Source of the DNA: Escherichia phage ESCO5
DNA: 64,000 nucleotides
Reading direction: 5' to 3' (one strand)
Sequence record: NC_047776.2
How positions within the stretch are numbered: the first letter of the stretch is position 1; each line of letters opens with the position of its first letter. A program made the translations under genes and the position numbers. Below are positions 17,151 to 26,361 of this stretch, piece after piece. The notes beneath the pieces are model-generated. The model searched no databases, was not told where the DNA came from, and worked only from the letters and a program-made list of their open reading frames with translations.

Positions 17151-17555
17151 TTATTGAAGTTTAAGTGAACCACGAAGACGTTTCTCTTGCTGATCACGGA
17201 TATATTGTGGAACCTCGTGAATTGAATCATTACCGTGCCTATTTTCAACAATTAAAGAGATAACTTGATAACCAAACTCTTCAGCAAGAGCTAGATAAGG
17301 TTTAAGTTCTTTCTCTGTGGTTGAAGTATTAGAAACAATAATCTTGTTAAGATTAGATGCCATAGCATCACGAACAATACCCTGACACCATGCGTGTGCT
17401 TTACCTACATTTTCTGGCTTCCAATCGTAAACACCACTCTCTGTGTAATGATATTGATCTGCCTCACAGATAGGCCAATAACCTTCAGAAATAATTTCTG
17501 CTACTGTAGATTTACCAGCACCTGAAACGCCACGTAAAATGATAAGTTGTTTCAT
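17151..17555 (-). CDS. polynucleotide 5'-kinase (T4 Pnk kinase-domain-like P-loop protein)
   Basis: 134 aa; Walker A GVSGAGKST near N-terminus, IIVSNTSTT like T4 Pnk; no HAD phosphatase domain attached. Confidence 0.6.
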   Translation of the reverse strand: MKQLIILRGVSGAGKSTVAEIISEGYWPICEADQYHYTESGVYDWKPENVGKAHAWCQGIVRDAMASNLNKIIVSNTSTTEKELKPYLALAEEFGYQVISLIVENRHGNDSIHEVPQYIRDQQEKRLRGSLKLQ

Positions 17556-18488
17556 TTATCCTCCAAAAAAGTTTTCGATTTTTTCACGTCGCTCTTGCTG
17601 ATTTAAAGCAGCCCATTGAGTCTTCGTAAAATTATTTCGAATCCATTCTAACAAAGCGTAATATTCTTCGTCAACAATTTGTTTGGCATTTTTCGGATTA
17701 TCCCAAATCAGATCCCACTTTTTATCTCCACCGCGCATAAGAAACTTCTTAGTAAGATAGTGTGGTGATTTAATTTTTAAAAGTAAGTTGAACGGATAGT
17801 TTGTTTCACGAACTACAAACCCTTCGTGTTTACAATGTTTAGACATTTCAACAACATCTGAAAACTTAACCATTGGATAAACTTCAGGACGCTTAAATTT
17901 GGTGACAGAAGCAATTCCATCAAGAGCACCTTCAGGTAACATAAAACTTGTCCCATCAGGATTTTGAATTCTGGCACCAATTAAGTATGCACCTGGTTCT
18001 TCTTCGACAATATGCGGATCAGAAGGATCACAGATTTCAAAAAGGAAAGTTGCTTTTGCACTCTCTGTCCATTTGATGAAATGTTCTATGTCATCACACT
18101 CTGAAACAATACGATTCTTTGCAATACTTGCAAAATCTGATTCAAGGCTTCCTGTTGTCGATACAATAAGTTGACCTTTATATACACCTACAGAGGCCAT
18201 AAAACCATTTACTTTACGAACCACATCTACAAGTTCATCCAATGGTAGATCTGTGCCATTCTCAAAACGATTAAAAATCTTAGTGAAAGGCCAAATAACA
18301 ACATTGTCATCAGCATCAACAACGATTCCGCGACATTCTAGAAGACGAGAATCAATGCTCCATAAGTTATCCCAGAAAACTTTGTTCTTATACTTAAGAA
18401 CAGATAGACCAGAATACTCTCCTTCTTTATATGTTTTCTTATGAACTAAACCTTTTTCAACCAAATCGTCGCAATTAAATTTAGTCAC
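17556..18488 (-). CDS. RNA ligase, T4 Rnl1 (RnlA) family
   Basis: 310 aa; LECRGIVVDADDNVV...FNRFEN resembles T4 Rnl1 ALECRGIMF...FFNLNEN; motif I RKVNGFMASV (KxNG). Confidence 0.7.
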   Translation of the reverse strand: MTKFNCDDLVEKGLVHKKTYKEGEYSGLSVLKYKNKVFWDNLWSIDSRLLECRGIVVDADDNVVIWPFTKIFNRFENGTDLPLDELVDVVRKVNGFMASVGVYKGQLIVSTTGSLESDFASIAKNRIVSECDDIEHFIKWTESAKATFLFEICDPSDPHIVEEEPGAYLIGARIQNPDGTSFMLPEGALDGIASVTKFKRPEVYPMVKFSDVVEMSKHCKHEGFVVRETNYPFNLLLKIKSPHYLTKKFLMRGGDKKWDLIWDNPKNAKQIVDEEYYALLEWIRNNFTKTQWAALNQQERREKIENFFGG

Positions 18489-18489
18489 A

Positions 18490-19041
18490 TTACTCTCCTT
18501 TGATTATTTTGTGATGGTCTACAGTCACGATATCTCGTTTACTCATCATAGAAATTATCTCATCAAAATGCAAGATTTTTCCGTGTGCATCCCAACCCAC
18601 ATCTAACATTTTACCATAAGCTTCATCAGGGAAAGATCCGTGGGAATGCCCGTGTAGCATGATTGATCCACGACCTTGTTTATTCCAGGAGGCCATAGGG
18701 TAATGACTTAAGACGAAGAACAGCTTCTGATATTTCACTTCGTCATAATACACCACTTCACCATACTCTGCAAGCACTTCTCGGTGTTTGCTGTAGTCAT
18801 GGTTCCCAACACAGTAGGTGATATCTCCTTGGAGACGAGAAGCAATTTTACGGGTATCTTCTTCAGTTCCGAAACAGAAGTCGCCCAAATGCCACATCTT
18901 AACACCAGGAGTAGTAGCACATTTGTTCCATGCTTCGATCAAGGCTTCTGTCATGTGGTCCATATCTTCCCACGGACGATATTCAGGAGCAAACTCTCGA
19001 ATACGTTTATGCATAAAATGCAAATCGCTTGTAATAAACAT
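18490..19041 (-). CDS. calcineurin-like metallophosphoesterase (putative RNA 3'-end healing phosphoesterase)
   Basis: 183 aa; binuclear-metal motifs SDLHFMH, HLGDFCFG, CVGNHDY, LHGHSHG. Confidence 0.7.
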   Translation of the reverse strand: MFITSDLHFMHKRIREFAPEYRPWEDMDHMTEALIEAWNKCATTPGVKMWHLGDFCFGTEEDTRKIASRLQGDITYCVGNHDYSKHREVLAEYGEVVYYDEVKYQKLFFVLSHYPMASWNKQGRGSIMLHGHSHGSFPDEAYGKMLDVGWDAHGKILHFDEIISMMSKRDIVTVDHHKIIKGE

Positions 19042-19397
19042 TAGTATAATCCCTCGCTAAATAATTCATGGTCGTGACCATTACGCTCATGGTCGATCTG
19101 GTCAGCATTTTCCGCGATGATGTAAGCATCCGCACGACTCCACCAATTGTAATACTGATCGATAAAGCCTTGATTATCTGGTGTGCACAAAGTTTTGTTG
19201 ATTACACCTGCTTCTTTCAACACGTTTAACTGTGCATATAGTACAGGATTTGCATGTCGAACACAAGGAATAATTAACTCTTCACCATTATTCAAAATAT
19301 ACTTATTTGCAGCACAGACGATAACACGTTGCGCATAATGACCCTCACCCATCCAGGTAAGAGGTTGGTAACAAATATTGTTTTCAATACCACTCAT
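19041..19397 (-). CDS. hypothetical protein
   Basis: 118-aa ORF directly upstream of the RNA repair operon. Confidence 0.4.
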   Translation of the reverse strand: MSGIENNICYQPLTWMGEGHYAQRVIVCAANKYILNNGEELIIPCVRHANPVLYAQLNVLKEAGVINKTLCTPDNQGFIDQYYNWWSRADAYIIAENADQIDHERNGHDHELFSEGLY

Positions 19398-19556
19398 TGT
19401 TTCCTAATCCTCCTCTCTTAAGTTATCCTCGAAAAAACTAGTGTCTGGAAGTAAAAGATCATTACTTGTGTCGGGCCAATCCTCTTCTTCTCGGTAGATA
19501 AAGTAACCTTCGTCCTCTTCTTGTTCCGACCAAACCGAATGATGCATGTTCTCTCC

Positions 19557-19901
19557 TTAGTAGTGCACACGAATCATTTTAATACCATAACGCAGCATAG
19601 ATTCTTTTGCAAGCATGAATTTATCCCCAGCGGCGGGATTAGAAGTATGCACGAAAATGGTGGGTGAACCAAAGCAAGGTTTACCAAACGCCAGAAGTTC
19701 TTCCAGGTACAGGAAAACATCATACCCATCTTGGTCTGACTCCATACCTAAATCATTGTCAAAAGACCACTCGGTTACTCTTCGATACAGTTTAGCAGGA
19801 TCGTTGAGAAAGGCCATAGCTTCTTGTGACGTTTTAAACCAAATTGCATCCTCCTGTCCATAGTCGGCTGGGTTCCGCATATCATCTATCCAAACTTTCA
19901 T
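19557..19901 (-). CDS. hypothetical protein
   Basis: 114-aa ORF. Confidence 0.4.
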   Translation of the reverse strand: MKVWIDDMRNPADYGQEDAIWFKTSQEAMAFLNDPAKLYRRVTEWSFDNDLGMESDQDGYDVFLYLEELLAFGKPCFGSPTIFVHTSNPAAGDKFMLAKESMLRYGIKMIRVHY

Positions 19902-23945: not shown

Positions 23946-24192
23946 ATAACTATTGACAAACGTATCCTTCATATGTTAGGATACGTTCATCAAGTGTGGT
24001 AACAGGGTCGTTGACTTTTGTTAAGAGAGGCTTGCACTGCGGATAGTGTTAGAGACTACTTCTTCAGAGGTTAGCTACCAAAGAGGAAAAGGAATAGTCT
24101 CGGCTCAAGAACTTTTACGCTGAAAGTTGGGCTTGGTCTTAGAGAATGTAGCGGTTCCCTACAATCGTCAGCGTCTCTGTTACCACATTTAT

Positions 24193-24267
24193 GGCCCTGT
24201 AGCTCAATGGGAGAGCTGTCGGCTCATAACCGATAGGTAGCTGGATCGAAACCAGCCAGGGCCACCA
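24193..24267 (+). tRNA. tRNA with CAT anticodon (Met or Ile2)
   Basis: GGCCCTG acceptor pairs CAGGGCC; anticodon loop CTCATAA; encoded CCA. Confidence 0.7.
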
Positions 24268-24269
24268 AC

Positions 24270-24344
24270 GTCTTTATGGTGTAATGGATAGCACAGGAGT
24301 CTTCTAAACTCTTAGTCAAGGTTCGATTCCTTGTAAAGACACCA
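24270..24344 (+). tRNA. tRNA-Arg (TCT)
   Basis: Acceptor GTCTTTA/TAAAGAC; anticodon arm GGAGT-CTTCTAA-ACTCT; T-loop TTCGATT; CCA. Confidence 0.65.
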
Positions 24345-24540
24345 GAACATTTTAACATGAATTAGCTCAAGTGATTTGAACCCACTACTGATCATGGTGG
24401 CAGAGAATGAGGCAAGTATGTCAGACATTATAAACAAAGGCCACGGTTATATTAGAAGACATAAATGCTCGAAGAGCACCGTTCGTGGAGAACGGGGGTT
24501 GGTGGAGTCACCATTCATGGTAAAATGTTTTAAAAAACTA

Positions 24541-24569
24541 TTGACAACAAACATTATTTTATGTTAGAT
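24541..24569 (+). promoter_or_regulatory. sigma70-like promoter
   Basis: TTGACA, 17-nt spacer, TTAGAT; upstream of tRNA-Ser. Confidence 0.4.
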
Positions 24570-24578
24570 TATAAGTAT

Positions 24579-24669
24579 GGAAGGGCAAATCGACGTGGCG
24601 ACGAAAACGGTCTTGAAAACCGCCGAGCTTGAAAGAGCCTTGGGAGTTCGACTCTCCCTCCTTCCGCCA
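24579..24669 (+). tRNA. tRNA-Ser (TGA), type II
   Basis: Acceptor GGAAGGG/TCCTTCC, loop CTTGAAA, long variable arm; close to E. coli Ser(UGA) arms. Confidence 0.65.
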
Positions 24670-24674
24670 GATTA

Positions 24675-24760
24675 GGTAGATTGGTGAAATGGTAGCCACG
24701 ACAGTTTGCTAAACTGTAGTCGGAAACGGCGTGTAGGTTCGAGTCCTACATCTACCGCCA
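24675..24760 (+). tRNA. tRNA-Ser (GCT), type II
   Basis: Acceptor GGTAGAT/ATCTACC, anticodon loop TTGCTAA, long variable arm, CCA. Confidence 0.6.
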
Positions 24761-24890
24761 AGTTCTTTTTAATGTAGCTTACTTTAGCAGAGTAAATCTT
24801 CGGCAAGTGGCGGTAACCACTTTACCGATACCTCATAGTTAGTGGTGCGAACACTGGCTATTTTAAAAAGAATTTAAATATTAGTATTTA

Positions 24891-24978
24891 GGTGAGTTAA
24901 TTCCGTAGGGGTAGCGGGGCAGACTGTAAATCTGTTATCATTGCGATTCGGGTGGTTCGACTCCATCACTCACCACCA
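24891..24978 (+). tRNA. tRNA-Tyr (GTA), type II
   Basis: Acceptor GGTGAGT/ACTCACC, anticodon arm CAGA-CTGTAAA-TCTG, long variable arm, CCA. Confidence 0.6.
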
Positions 24979-24984
24979 AATTAA

Positions 24985-25070
24985 GATGAGTTGGCTGAAT
25001 GGTTTAAGCGGCGGACTGTTAATCCGTGTTCGAAAGAACAATATAGGTTCGAATCCTATACTCATCGCCA
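24985..25070 (+). tRNA. tRNA-Asn (GTT) with an unusually long variable arm
   Basis: Acceptor GATGAGT/ACTCATC, discriminator G; anticodon arm GCGGA-CTGTTAA-TCCGT matches E. coli tRNA-Asn; ~15-nt GTTCGAAAGAAC hairpin before T-arm; 86 nt. Confidence 0.5.
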
Positions 25071-25080
25071 GAATTATGGA

Positions 25081-25158
25081 CTTGTAGAGTTAAGGTAAAC
25101 CCCCAGTCGCCAATAGGCTTCTGGAATTGCAGGTATCGAATCCTGCCGAGTCCCAGCA
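25081..25158 (+). ncRNA. tRNA-like element, anticodon arm unresolved
   Basis: Acceptor GGACTTG/CGAGTCC and T-arm GCAGG-TATCGAAT-CCTGC present; central region does not fold into canonical D/anticodon arms by eye; no CCA. Confidence 0.3.
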
Positions 25159-25160
25159 TT

Positions 25161-25235
25161 GCTCCTATAGTATAATGGCTATTACAACGGTTTTGTAATC
25201 CGTGGATCTCTGTTCGATTCAGTGTGGGAGCACCA
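25161..25235 (+). tRNA. tRNA-Thr (TGT) (putative)
   Basis: Acceptor GCTCCTA/TGGGAGC, D-arm like E. coli Gly, anticodon loop TTTGTAA, CCA. Confidence 0.5.
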
Positions 25236-25508
25236 ACACAACATTAAGAGCACTGTGATTGATCGTCGTATCCTGTGCACAAGGTCTGCTCGAAAGACAG
25301 TGTTCTTAGTATTGTGTTGATCACAAAAAGAGTCACCCGAAACTTGACCGGAGTAGGGTTGGATGGGGCAAAATGAGAAGCGGCTCTCCCATCGACAGCA
25401 ACGAAGAATAATATTTGACTTTTGTTTTGTATTATTTTAAGTTAGCTTACCGAACGTAGGGCTAGTCACCCAACGGGATACTCGTCACTGTCCCACTCAA
25501 TAAAACTA

Positions 25509-25538
25509 TTGACAACCAATAGTAAAATGTAGTATAGT
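25509..25538 (+). promoter_or_regulatory. sigma70-like promoter
   Basis: TTGACA, 18-nt spacer, TATAGT; upstream of tRNA-Gly. Confidence 0.45.
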
Positions 25539-25549
25539 AAAGATGTAGG

Positions 25550-25623
25550 GCGTTCTTGGTGTAGCGGTAGCATTCCGTCCTTCCAAGTCGGCGGCACGAG
25601 TTCGATCCTCGTAGAACGCTCCA
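25550..25623 (+). tRNA. tRNA-Gly (TCC)
   Basis: Acceptor GCGTTCT/AGAACGC, anticodon loop CTTCCAA, T-loop TTCGATC, CCA. Confidence 0.6.
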
Positions 25624-25721
25624 AATTATTTAATAAAGGGTTGCCAGAAAACTTTCTCTTTTACTCATGGTTTTCTCCTTCTCTCACACTTCTTCTGGTT
25701 GCCCTTCATTAAATGATTTAT

Positions 25722-25797
25722 TGGTTTGTAGTGTAGTCCGGTAGCACACGACACTTTGACTGTCGTAGGTTTGGTTCAAATCCAGACAGACCAGCCA
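25722..25797 (+). tRNA. tRNA-Gln (TTG)
   Basis: T1-A72 start TGGTTTG/CAGACCA like E. coli Gln, anticodon arm CGACA-CTTTGAC-TGTCG, CCA. Confidence 0.65.
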
Positions 25798-25870
25798 TAT
25801 AACAAAGGTGAGTCACTACCTTAAGTGTGAAGTTAAAAACGAGGAGCCGCCGAACACTTTCTTTTGCGGT

Positions 25871-25947
25871 GTACCTTTAGAATGTTATCACGGGACGTAG
25901 CACAGCTTGGTAGTGCGCTCGCTTTGGGAGCGAGAGGTCGAGTGTTC
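25871..25947 (+). tRNA. tRNA-Pro (TGG)
   Basis: Acceptor CGGGACG/CGTCCCG, anticodon arm CTCGC-TTTGGGA-GCGAG, CCA. Confidence 0.7.
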
Positions 25948-25953
25948 GAATCA

Positions 25954-26027
25954 CTCCGTCCCGACCAATTAAATGTTTCGTAGTTCAATGGTAGAACCCA
26001 CGACTGATAATCGTGAGACACAAGTTC
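25954..26027 (+). tRNA. tRNA-Ile (GAT)
   Basis: Acceptor TGTTTCG/CGAAACA, anticodon arm CACGA-CTGATAA-TCGTG, CCA. Confidence 0.65.
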
Positions 26028-26028
26028 G

Positions 26029-26098
26029 ATTCTTGTCGAAACAACCAGTTTCCCGTTAGACTTACAGGATAAGAGATCCACAATTTATTGTGACGCTG
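26029..26098 (+). ncRNA. tRNA-like element, anticodon arm unresolved
   Basis: T-arm GCTGG-TTCGAAT-CCAGC and acceptor-like TCCCGT/ACGGGA; interior has a CACAAT-TT-ATTGTG hairpin instead of a 7-nt anticodon loop; no CCA. Confidence 0.3.
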
Positions 26099-26125
26099 GT
26101 TCGAATCCAGCACGGGATACATAAT

Positions 26126-26204
26126 AGCGGGATAGAGGAGTCTGGTCGTCCTCGCCAGTTTCATATGCTGGAGATCATTGGTTCAAATCCAATTCCCGCC
26201 TCCA
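26126..26204 (+). tRNA. second tRNA with CAT anticodon (Met or Ile2)
   Basis: Anticodon arm CCAGT-TTCATAT-GCTGG, T-loop TTCAAAT, 3' TCCCGCC-T-CCA; possible 1-72 A/C mismatch. Confidence 0.55.
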
Positions 26205-26318
26205 AATATCGCTTGCCAGCGGTATCTTTGAAGACCTTGCCTGGTTCCTTCTAAGATGGAGGGGTGCGACTCCTTAACGCACAATCATAATAAAGCATTT
26301 CAAATTAACAGTATTTAT

Positions 26319-26343
26319 TGGCCTCCTTATTGGAGGCTTTTTG
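26319..26343 (+). terminator. rho-independent terminator closing the tRNA array
   Basis: GCCTCC-TTATT-GGAGGC followed by TTTTT. Confidence 0.7.
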
Positions 26344-26361
26344 CTATCTATCGAATAAAAC

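Follow-up and report, generated by a model that had tools for sequence, protein, structure and literature searches.

Structured RNAs lie between the tRNAs of Escherichia phage ESCO5 and include one antisense to a plasmid gene annotated for abortive infection

The tRNA array of Escherichia phage ESCO5 carries, on the same strand, 12 tRNAs and at least six conserved non-tRNA RNAs (the tRNA-like elements E1 and E2 and the spacer RNAs S0, S1, S2, S3a and S4; Table 1). The array was analysed within a window of 64,000 nucleotides (the whole stretch of DNA considered here, record NC_047776.2), to which the phage vB_EcoM_REC (Phapecoctavirus) is 100% identical. In the reading put forward, the region is an operon of tRNA genes in a phAPEC8-like myovirus, served by three promoters and a single terminator, and its accessory RNAs act in trans, S2 against a plasmid abi gene among them; this is given a probability of roughly one half.

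Table 1. Features of the ESCO5 tRNA array, in window coordinates
Feature	Position	Strand	Evidence or remark
Promoter P1, AACTATTGACAA, spacer 18 nt, TG-extended TAGGAT	23948..23982	+	TTGACA at 23953
S0, 5' leader RNA, ~203 nt, closing helix ~23 bp	23990..24192	+	MFE -73.2 kcal/mol, z -4.34
tRNA, anticodon CAT	24193..24267	+	ARAGORN: Met; tRNAscan-SE in ASO2A: Ile2; Rfam
tRNA-Arg(TCT)	24270..24344	+	ARAGORN, Rfam
S1, structured RNA, ~190 nt	24345..24535	+	z -3.99; also in Seunavirus tRNA arrays
Promoter P2	24536..24570	+	TTGACA at 24541
tRNA-Ser(TGA), D arm atypical	24578..24668	+	tRNA-Sec model below threshold; ASO2A annotation
tRNA-Ser(GCT)	24675..24760	+	ARAGORN, Rfam
S2, cloverleaf-like, closing helix 11 bp, three hairpins	24761..24890	+	z -3.52
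tRNA-Tyr(GTA)	24891..24978	+	Rfam; ASO2A annotation
tRNA-Asn(GTT)	24985..25070	+	ARAGORN, Rfam
E1, anticodon-less tRNA-like RNA, T5/BF23 RNA3 family	25078..25154	+	covariance model, covariation
tRNA-Thr(TGT)	25161..25235	+	ARAGORN, Rfam
S3a, long hairpin, ~21 bp, branched tip	25236..25320	+	z -4.01
S3b, spacer conserved in part	25321..25503	+	middle replaced in phiWec181
Promoter P3, 11/12 consensus matches	25504..25538	+	TTGACA at 25509
tRNA-Gly(TCC)	25550..25623	+	ARAGORN, Rfam
S4, long stem with conserved CU-rich loop (UUUCUCUUUU.CUCAUGGUUUUCUCCUUC)	25624..25721	+	z -5.16
tRNA-Gln(TTG)	25722..25797	+	ARAGORN, Rfam
S5, unstructured insertion	25798..25890	+	z 0.00; related to rIII 3' flank of T4-like phages
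tRNA-Pro(TGG)	25891..25967	+	ARAGORN, Rfam
tRNA-Ile(GAT)	25974..26047	+	ARAGORN, Rfam
E2, tRNA-like: acceptor stem, canonical T arm, 4-nt loop at anticodon position	26050..26119	+	
tRNA-Met(CAT)	26126..26204	+	ARAGORN, Rfam
S6, 3' trailer	26205..26319	+	z -1.83
Intrinsic terminator	26320..26345	+	called at 26320-26338

The 12 tRNAs named in a first-pass annotation of the sequence were all recovered. Ten were called by ARAGORN and 11 matched by Rfam, the additional one being Tyr (24891-24975, 39 bits). Ser-TGA scored 37.4 bits against the tRNA-Sec model, which is under the Rfam threshold, and was called by tRNAscan-SE in ASO2A, a phage 98% identical; the ASO2A annotation lists exactly the same 12 anticodons, with the first CAT as Ile2. 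These calls, together with three promoters in the array, bear out the description of the region as a dense, promoter-punctuated array with sigma70-like promoters. The promoters have in common an exact 12-mer, AACTATTGACAA, which occurs three times in the 64 kb, each time inside the array, while promoter-like sites overall showed no excess over chance (10 found, 10.7 expected). The single terminator thought to close the array was likewise found, from 26320.

The 12 tRNAs correspond to codons in heavy phage use, AUA, AGA, ACA, GGA, CAA and CCA making up 0.19 to 0.71 of their families, and the set is consistent with plain codon compensation. Nothing was found to tie the odd members of the array to evasion of tRNA-depleting defences, the role first suggested for them; the link to defence that did emerge is of another kind, namely the antisense match of the S2 spacer RNA to a plasmid gene annotated for abortive infection.

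Spacers S0, S1, S2, S3a and S4 are conserved structured RNAs and not junk. The folding of native sequence was compared with that of shuffled sequence, and the resulting z-scores of the structured modules lay between -3.5 and -5.2, with clear covariation in S0, S1 and S2. Compensatory changes affected 9 of 74 pairs in S0 (against phiWec181), 15 of 47 in S1 (over eight sequences) and 6 of 37 in S2 (over 11 phages). The plus strand folded better than the minus strand, in S0 at -73 versus -54 kcal/mol with 14 G.U pairs, which points to RNA made from the tRNA strand. S3a shares ~82% identity with an intergenic hairpin of a prophage, which carries a compensatory change, the loop of S4 is kept across genera on differing stems, and the first ~85 nt of S6 are conserved at the array end in Justusliebigvirus too. 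S5 was ruled out as a structured RNA by its z-score; it is missing from Mt1B1_P17, where the tRNA-Pro allele differs, and this coupling indicates a recombination mosaic and not precise excision. The suggestion that the long spacers might hold small RNAs or further tRNAs therefore held for S1, S2 and S3a as structured RNAs, but not for further tRNAs; S0 and S4 had been absent from that list of spacers.

Searches of S0 to S6 against Rfam 15, at the gathering score and at E <= 10, returned tRNA matches and noise only; the best non-tRNA match, to RyhB over the terminator, reached 27.5 bits where 55 are required. Neither Rfam nor ARAGORN supported a group I intron, ribozyme, tmRNA, Y RNA or 6S RNA. 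S4 was discarded as an anti-Shine-Dalgarno or antisense RNA, there being no second site in the window complementary to its conserved loop. Scans of IMG/VR yielded almost no further relatives of S0 and S1.

In some annotations the spacers hold short ORFs or array members are labelled pseudo-tRNAs, and E2 is possibly a tRNA minus 3 nt of the anticodon loop; the odd elements could on these grounds be decaying tRNA pseudogenes, and the spacers neutral junk or small-protein genes. This is very improbable, and for E1, S0, S1 and S2 largely refuted, given their strong covariation. Reading frames are not conserved among relatives: the 63-aa ORF of S1 is disrupted by frameshifting 1-nt indels in the near-identical phages ASO2A and phiWec181, and the minus-strand mini-ORF of S4 is frameshifted between genera although its nucleotides are conserved. 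Coding potential in the spacers was rejected because of these indels.

Two elements with tRNA-like ends had been described as unfoldable. The first, placed at 25081-25158, is real and lacks a standard anticodon arm as proposed, but its core lies slightly upstream and it does fold, into a tRNA-like cloverleaf (z = -3.68 against shuffled sequence). Neither element was assigned as a tRNA by ARAGORN or by the Rfam tRNA model (RF00005), even at E <= 10, so one outcome named as refuting the first-pass annotation, their assignment as ordinary tRNAs, did not arise. A covariance model, R1, scored E1 at 85 bits, BF23 RNA3 at 82.7 bits and the T5-like copies at 86-87 bits. The homologue is annotated in BF23 and T5 as rna3, "tRNA-like RNA with unknown functions", and E1, being homologous to it, is therefore not new.

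Across six phage lineages, the acceptor stem, T stem and variable hairpin of the E1 family are kept through compensatory changes; the acceptor stems differ in sequence and retain full complementarity. In the family alignment 95% of cells are paired, both sides have changed in 12 of the 20 pairs, and the covariation score is 0.62, whereas sliding the partners gave no more than 0.185. The family is without a 7-nt anticodon loop, and the hairpin that replaces the anticodon arm varies between lineages, spanning 16 to 47 nt and ending in a loop of 4 to 7 nt. Beside its acceptor and T stems E1 has an 8-nt T loop (UAUCGAAU) that is kept family-wide, and the E1/RNA3 family shares the invariant block G-UAGAGUUAAG(N)UAAACC. 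T5 RNA3 encodes ACCA after the acceptor stem, whereas E1 has C-AGC there, so CCA addition to E1 would be post-transcriptional. No host counterpart was found in 5,426 E. coli genomes or among 17 bacterial pattern matches, and the window holds no site complementary to E1. E1 would keep the tRNA outline of acceptor, elbow and T arm without decoding capacity, and most likely acts as a mimic of tRNA shape that is bound by a tRNA-recognising protein.

The second element was recognised correctly by its hairpin and tRNA-like stems, but the range assigned to it (26029-26098) overlaps tRNA-Ile and leaves out the T arm. E2 too is foldable, as a cloverleaf in which a short hairpin, CACAA-UUUA-UUGUG, replaces the anticodon arm; it has an acceptor stem, a T stem and a canonical T loop (UUCGAAU), with a fold z-score of -2.72 against shuffled sequence and 22.6 bits to the E1 covariance model. 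Substitutions in E2, which is confined to the genus Phapecoctavirus, fall in loops and junctions only. Conservation of E2 was dropped as evidence of selection: it is uninformative, since the sole diverged relative matches the right half of the array at 95-100% identity. For E2, as for S3a and S4, the sequences available for comparison are few or nearly alike.

The closest known counterparts are found in the tRNA regions of T5 and BF23, considered here as annotated in NC_042564.1 and NC_005859.1, where RNA1, RNA2 and RNA3 are called "tRNA-like" and RNAI, RNAIII, RNAIV, RNA2H and RNAX "stable RNA with unknown functions". Like the modules of the window, these RNAs are interspersed with tRNAs downstream of strong promoters, and each is closed by a helix between its 5' and 3' ends. 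RNA3 and E1 are homologous in both sequence and structure and both lie directly 3' of tRNA-Asn, a position that E1 also occupies in Justusliebigvirus. When all modules were compared with eight BF23 RNAs, E1 with RNA3 was the sole match, and S0, S1, S3a, S4, S6 and E2 have no sequence similarity to any T5/BF23 RNA. In T4, the species 1 and species 2 RNAs (rnaC and rnaD) are likewise small stable RNAs at a phage tRNA cluster, and rnaC resembles E1 and E2 in having an acceptor-like stem and a T arm. No module has sequence similarity to rnaC or rnaD, which are late RNAs, whereas the window promoters are of sigma-70 type; the roles of rnaC and rnaD are still not known (PMC3014915, PMC9697503). In kind, the spacer RNAs correspond to T4 RNAC and RNAD and the T5 "stable RNAs" RNAI, RNAIII and RNAIV.

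From the same T4 and T5 precedents, the accessory RNAs are predicted to be excised from tRNA precursors by host tRNA-processing enzymes, RNase P cutting the 5' ends of tRNAs and tRNA-like elements, and RNase III or RNase E, followed by exonucleases, acting at the long closing helices. Once released, the RNAs would work in trans, their targets being factors of the host or of plasmids. The accessory elements could instead act solely in cis, as RNase III and RNase P punctuation and stabilisers in precursor maturation, with the S2-abi match a by-product of DNA exchange. The modules are closed by terminal helices of 18 to 24 bp (11 bp in S2) that suit RNase III, and every one is flanked by tRNAs; the analogous T4 and T5 RNAs have had no function found in ~50 years, the arrays are mosaics shaped by recombination, and homing endonuclease genes adjoin S1 and S2 in relatives. 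Yet E1 sits between two tRNAs that RNase P would separate regardless, and is retained in phiWec181, where tRNA-Asn has been lost. In S0 and S1, conservation extends into the interior for more than 100 nt past the closing helix, and three separate allele-specific matches between S2 and abi, which cut across phage phylogeny, are hard to explain without selection at the sequence level. Action confined to cis is considered unlikely.

The plasmid match of S2 resides in its core (24778-24839, hairpins 1 and 2), which is antisense to the 3' end of abi. The core is identical to ColIb-P9 at 60 of 62 nt, with a longest contiguous run of 55 nt, and matched 367 conjugative plasmids, 341 of them at 95-99% identity. 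Among 5,426 complete E. coli genomes, 164 plasmids (~3%) carry the match of this phage's S2 core at abi. In ColIb-P9 the S2-like segment is antisense to the final 19 codons and the stop codon of abi, a 114-aa ORF that is annotated "abortive infection protein" and adjoins the colicin Ib immunity gene; the antisense orientation is the same in two further plasmid abi alleles. The phage S2 sequences form three allele classes whose distribution cuts across phage phylogeny, and each class pairs with a different plasmid allele (1, 3 and 3-4 differences, against 8-14 with non-matching alleles). Hairpin 2 covaries in phages and plasmids, although the Abi C-terminus is changed thereby. RNAduplex energies were set aside, their shuffled baseline looking unreliable, and the claim of an S2-abi duplex rests on these identity counts.

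The shared segment may equally be considered as DNA. A mobile or recombinogenic S2 core, serving for instance as landing pad or as target of a homing endonuclease, might move between plasmids and phage tRNA arrays through selfishness at the DNA level. Its distribution in Stephanstirmvirinae, Vequintavirinae and Demerecviridae is patchy, yet identity reaches 98%; in KKE7M, S2 is followed immediately by an HNH endonuclease gene, the 5' arm of S2 is replaced in two IMG/VR contigs, and homing endonucleases are associated with phage tRNA loci (PMC13096335). Such mobility as the explanation is quite improbable, since the RNA helices are preserved by compensatory substitutions, the limits of the segment coincide exactly with hairpin boundaries, and the 62-nt core has no target-site duplication or terminal inverted repeat. 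One U.G pair of the core is invariant and further G.U pairs are specific to an allele; their direction would favour the antisense strand as the one that is folded and transcribed.

The trans-acting reading of S2 can be put in more specific, tentative terms: S2 may be an anti-defence RNA, excised from a tRNA precursor, that neutralises the abi of ColIb and other IncI1-IncF plasmids, abi itself being a type I-like toxin-antitoxin with an overlooked antisense RNA. At least three matched allele pairs would then be engaged in an arms race, and the stable RNAs of T4, T5, rV5-like and phAPEC8-like phages would form a counter-defence reservoir. S2, near-perfectly complementary over 55 to 62 nt, would pair with abi mRNA from IncI1 and IncF plasmids at its 3' end or, alternatively, stand in for a plasmid-encoded cis-antisense antitoxin RNA; by either route, expression of the membrane-damaging Abi would be blocked or destabilised and the phage would escape abortive infection. 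The plasmids carry a conserved TTGACA-17-TAGC(G/T)T that ends 7-8 nt before the shared segment, a putative antisense promoter with a weak -10 (TAGCGT or TAGCTT) that the promoter scanner did not call. The 114-aa ORF, whose core is hydrophobic, is conserved in the three alleles with no frameshift; it matched no Pfam, NCBIfam or PADLOC model, and neither the plasmid abi region nor the prophage region matched Rfam. T5 and BF23, the classical abi-sensitive phages aborted by ColIb, are without S2.

Several observations bear on how this proposal is to be read. The name "abortive infection protein" is a database annotation only, and the equation of the ORF with the mapped abi/ibf locus is putative. 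Antisense pairing to the coding 3' end would be an uncommon means of halting a toxin, which might by then be present, and the allele match is also explicable by repeated DNA exchange without RNA-RNA function. The proposal presumes that phAPEC8-like phages are abi targets, and in the literature the trigger of the ColIb abi system is the T5 A2 protein rather than the loss of an RNA.

Two known strategies are comparable. Phage-borne Pseudo-ToxI reportedly mimics a type III antitoxin RNA and defeats ToxIN abortive infection (Blower and co-workers, 2012). As proposed for S2, it is a phage RNA that copies or matches the RNA part of an abortive-infection toxin system; ToxI, however, binds the toxin protein, whereas S2 would pair antisense with the toxin mRNA in a type I-like manner, and S2 is embedded in a tRNA operon, its role being proposed from sequence. 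In type I pairs such as bsrG/SR4 and txpA/RatA, the toxin mRNA and its antisense RNA overlap at the 3' end of the former. The plasmid locus resembles these pairs in that abi, a small ORF and putative hydrophobic toxin, has a structured, covarying antisense segment over its last codons, and differs in that its antisense transcript is putative, its putative promoter having a weak -10, and that the described trigger of abi is a phage protein.

Stable non-tRNA RNAs in the tRNA clusters of T4 and T5 have been known since the 1970s without an assigned function, and none is in Rfam. The present analysis places such RNAs in covariation-supported families common to at least three phage groups and, with S2, provides a concrete proposed role for one of them, the antisense neutralisation of ColIb abi. 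For the ColIb abi/ibf locus, which brings about a loss of membrane potential, the literature has yet to name the gene products or the mechanism (PMC10644984). If the proposal is true, RNA-based counter-defence by type I antitoxin mimicry would join the phage repertoire, the standing of tRNA arrays as exchange hotspots would be explained in part, and the plating of therapeutic coliphages on strains with IncI1 or IncF plasmids would become predictable.

Over the 2.5 kb surrounding the tRNA array, identity is 100% with Escherichia phage vB_EcoM_REC (REC; OM386667.1; Stephanstirmvirinae, Phapecoctavirus) and 95-99% with many phAPEC8-like phages. Ten tRNAs were found by ARAGORN and 11 by Rfam; the twelfth, Ser-TGA, scored only below threshold in Rfam, with the tRNA-Sec model, and is annotated by tRNAscan-SE in ASO2A, a 98% identical phage. 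The 12 tRNAs, internal promoters and single terminator listed in the first-pass annotation were all borne out: ASO2A carries the identical set of 12 anticodons, the three array promoters (P1-P3) share an exact 12-mer, AACTATTGACAA, that is absent from the rest of the 64 kb, and one intrinsic terminator ends the array. The codons read include AUA, AGA, UCA, ACA, GGA, CAA and CCA, which are rare in E. coli and heavily used by the phage (phage family fractions of 0.19, 0.20, 0.15, 0.44, 0.28, 0.71 and 0.38, respectively), and the set fits ordinary codon compensation. When phage phiWec181 was compared with REC, the left half of the array was approximately 80% identical in the spacers and the right half 95-100% identical, a pattern that, judged from sequence, is clearly a recombination mosaic. 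Over the interval matching 24891-25070, phiWec181 has a different tRNA-Tyr allele, and a small annotated CDS replaces the REC tRNA-Asn; the neighboring tRNA-like element, E1, is kept.

It had been proposed that the long spacers (numbered from S0, the 5' leader) hold further elements. Conserved, structured, non-tRNA RNAs were indeed found in S0, S1, S2, S3a and S4, but not in S5, which is unstructured. Each of the long spacers forms a closed domain in which the 5' end pairs with the 3' end, and a counterpart of S1 lies inside Seunavirus tRNA arrays. Folding is stronger for the plus strand than for the minus strand (for S0, -73 versus -54 kcal/mol, with 14 G.U pairs), which points to the spacer RNA being transcribed together with the tRNAs. 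The short spacer ORFs were rejected as genes, as 1-nt indels break their frames in near-identical phages. The conserved S4 loop has, on its minus strand, a strong Shine-Dalgarno sequence followed by an ATG (GAAGGAGAAAACCATGAG) that opens a 12-codon ORF; this is probably non-coding, because in Justusliebigvirus the nucleotides are conserved and the frame is shifted.

Coordinates of features in the window (NC_047776.2) and in comparison sequences (L-numbers)
Feature	Sequence	Coordinates	Details
RNA-repair-like gene set	window, minus strand	17151-19901	~5 kb upstream of array
Promoters P1-P3	window	23953, 24541, 25509	
S0	window	23990-24192	-73.2 kcal/mol, z = -4.34; nine compensatory pairs versus phiWec181 alone
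S1	window	24345-24535	z = -3.99; compensatory pairs 15/47
tRNA Ser-TGA	window	24578-24668	
S2	window	24761-24890	z = -3.52; compensatory pairs 6/37 across 11 phages, 0 broken
S2 core	window	24778-24839	62 nt; hairpins 1 and 2
E1	window	25078-25154	cloverleaf, z = -3.68
S3a	window	25236-25320	z = -4.01
S4	window	25624-25721	z = -5.16; stems vary between genera, CU-rich loop conserved
S4 conserved loop	window, minus strand	25664-25681	
S5	window	25798-25890	z = 0.00; polymorphic among close relatives
E2	window	26050-26119	
Terminator	window	26320-26338	
Interval matching 24891-25070	phiWec181, L018	1699-1932	
tRNA-like elements or hairpin domain	Justusliebigvirus, L004	1339-1565, 3532-3608, 3788-3933	unannotated
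tRNA-like element or hairpin domain	Justusliebigvirus, L005	3102-3278	unannotated
HNH homing endonuclease gene	KKE7M, L004	1920-2293	directly 3' of S2
HNH homing endonuclease gene	SSE121, L145	516-871	directly 3' of S1
HNH homing endonuclease gene	Salmonella phage R7, L146	615-985	directly 3' of S1
S3a-like hairpin	E. coli prophage, L197	3001-3074	
DUF4238-protein gene	plasmid, L198	1825-2826	same place in L199 and L200

The spacer modules had no match in Rfam, T4 rnaC/rnaD or the BF23 RNAs. They resemble the "stable RNAs with unknown functions" of BF23 and T5, all of which likewise close on a terminal helix, and are of the same kind as T4 RNAC and RNAD, which are still without a known role; the spacer RNAs add new members to a class that is known but functionally blank. 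Two of the spacers have relatives elsewhere. S3a is approximately 82% identical, with a compensatory change, to an E. coli prophage hairpin located in a non-coding stretch of about 750 nt that runs from promoter to terminator between the portal and terminase genes. This hairpin occurs in 13 E. coli chromosomes and one Salmonella plasmid, and no Rfam family was found for it. S5, absent in phage Mt1B1_P17, is 86-90% identical to sequence immediately 3' of rIII in T4-like phages, and the phi92 array contains an rIII fragment. Unannotated copies of a 36-nt segment of S5, at 97% identity, are carried by 10 plasmids from E. coli, Serratia, Shewanella and Pantoea.

The first of two elements that had been singled out as not forming an ordinary tRNA, E1, was called by neither of the tRNA detectors used (ARAGORN, Rfam). 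Its counterpart lies directly 3' of tRNA-Asn in Justusliebigvirus and T5-like phages, and in BF23/T5 is annotated rna3, a "tRNA-like RNA with unknown functions"; E1 therefore belongs to a family that is already known, though obscure, and is not new. A covariance model built from 12 sequences found members in IMG/VR and metagenomes and none in bacterial genomes. In six lineages the acceptor stems differ in sequence and each is fully complementary (GGACTTG/CGAGTCC, TGCTTG/CAAGCA, TCTGTG/CACAGA, GAGCAAG/CTTGTTC, GGTCTAG/CTAGATC and GTGGAGG/CCTCCGC). Pairing holds in 95% of cells across the family, both sides have changed in 12 of 20 pairs, and covariation scores 0.62, whereas slid controls reach no more than 0.185; the possibility that E1 is a pseudogene was rejected on the complementary stems and this score. 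The D region is invariant (G-UAGAGUUAAG(N)UAAACC). Almost as constant is the 8-nt T loop, UAUCRAAU (one purine position; AUU in one lineage). The hairpin that occupies the anticodon position is 16-47 nt long, and its loop 4-7 nt. Given this covariation, the invariant D region, the nearly invariant T loop and a variable hairpin in place of the anticodon arm, E1 is, on sequence grounds, a tRNA-shaped RNA under selection and unable to decode.

The second element, E2, is also present, but had been misplaced so as to overlap tRNA-Ile. Besides an acceptor stem and a canonical T arm, it has a D-like hairpin and, at the anticodon position, CACAA-UUUA-UUGUG; it scores 22.6 bits with the E1 model. E2 was seen in Phapecoctavirus only, with substitutions confined to loops or junctions; selection or covariation cannot be inferred, because the only diverged relative is 95-100% identical over the whole right half of the array. 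Justusliebigvirus arrays hold further tRNA-like elements, one with a TCT anticodon loop and a long variable region but lacking a normal D arm, and another with a CAT loop; between Phe and Leu they also contain a closed hairpin domain that is not a tRNA. The odd members of the REC array are real, as is the array itself, and the probability that it is a tRNA operon in which conserved accessory RNAs are co-expressed with the tRNAs is put at about 85%.

The S2 core matched 164 plasmids in a search of complete E. coli genomes and 367 in PLSDB (348 conjugative; 341 at 95-99% identity), among them the IncI1 prototype ColIb-P9. The identity is 60/62, the first 55 positions being contiguous, and the core is antisense to the end of a hydrophobic 114-aa ORF, covering its final 19 codons and stop codon; the colicin Ib immunity gene lies nearby. 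This ORF is annotated "abortive infection protein", and is identified as abi by that annotation alone. In the classical case, ColIb plasmids cause infections by T5 and BF23 to abort through loss of membrane potential; the products of the abi/ibf locus "have not been identified" (PMC10644984). S2 was not found in T5 or BF23, which are abi-sensitive; it is present in some other T5-like phages. A convergently oriented gene for a DUF4238 protein precedes abi in each of the three plasmid alleles examined, and the two genes may form one defence locus; neither protein was found in PADLOC.

Each of the three plasmid abi alleles has a matching phage S2 allele. Counted over approximately 58 nt, the S2 of REC, KKE7M and JES2013 has 1 difference from the ColIb-P9 type and 10-14 from the other two; that of phi92 has 3 from the pDR162 type and 8-9 from the others; and that of JLBYU50 and Mt1B1_P17 has 3-4 from the pB17 type and 9-14 from the others. 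The pDR162-type and pB17/pSE11-1-type plasmid alleles carry compensatory differences in hairpin 2 that change the Abi C-terminus. Allele class is uncoupled from phage phylogeny, as Justusliebigvirus (KKE7M, phi92, JLBYU50) and Phapecoctavirus (REC, Mt1B1_P17) each carry different classes. Repeated DNA exchange between phages and plasmids could mimic co-evolution.

S2 shares its strand with the tRNAs, lies downstream of P2 and is flanked by tRNA-Ser and tRNA-Tyr, and its predicted transcript is therefore an RNA complementary to abi mRNA; folding of the S2-sense strand is favoured by an invariant U.G pair and by the G.U pairs of allele 2 (pDR162 type). A 130-nt S2 RNA would be freed when RNase P cuts at tRNA-Tyr and the 3' end of tRNA-Ser matures, and its core would pair with abi mRNA or substitute for a labile plasmid antisense antitoxin, thereby suppressing Abi expression during infection. 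The logic is that of pseudo-ToxI escape from ToxIN. The plasmids have a conserved TTGACA-17-TAGC(G/T)T ending just before the shared segment, with a weak -10 box that was not called by the promoter scanner, and a putative plasmid antisense RNA to abi has a candidate start at CTTACTTT. Against an antisense role, the trigger described for abi is a phage protein, and 3'-end antisense is an unusual means of stopping a toxin. S2 as an anti-abi RNA is accordingly a tentative proposal, held at somewhat less than even odds; the S2-abi antisense relationship is unreported as far as the searched literature shows.

Recent work links phage tRNA-Tyr, and the homing endonucleases of tRNA loci, to escape from a tRNA-Tyr-cleaving nuclease (PMC13096335), and HNH endonuclease genes adjoin S1 or S2 in several relatives. 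Upstream of the array, a gene set encodes a 134-aa AAA_33 P-loop kinase-like protein, an RNA_lig_T4_1 (Rnl1-type) ligase (55.6 bits), a calcineurin-like metallophosphatase and a cREC_REC 'cyclic-phosphate processing' domain protein (63 bits); by domain content it resembles a split T4 Pnkp/Rnl1 tRNA-repair pathway. Together, the link to the tRNA-Tyr-cleaving nuclease, the HNH genes and the repair-like set suggest that host defences exert pressure on this region.
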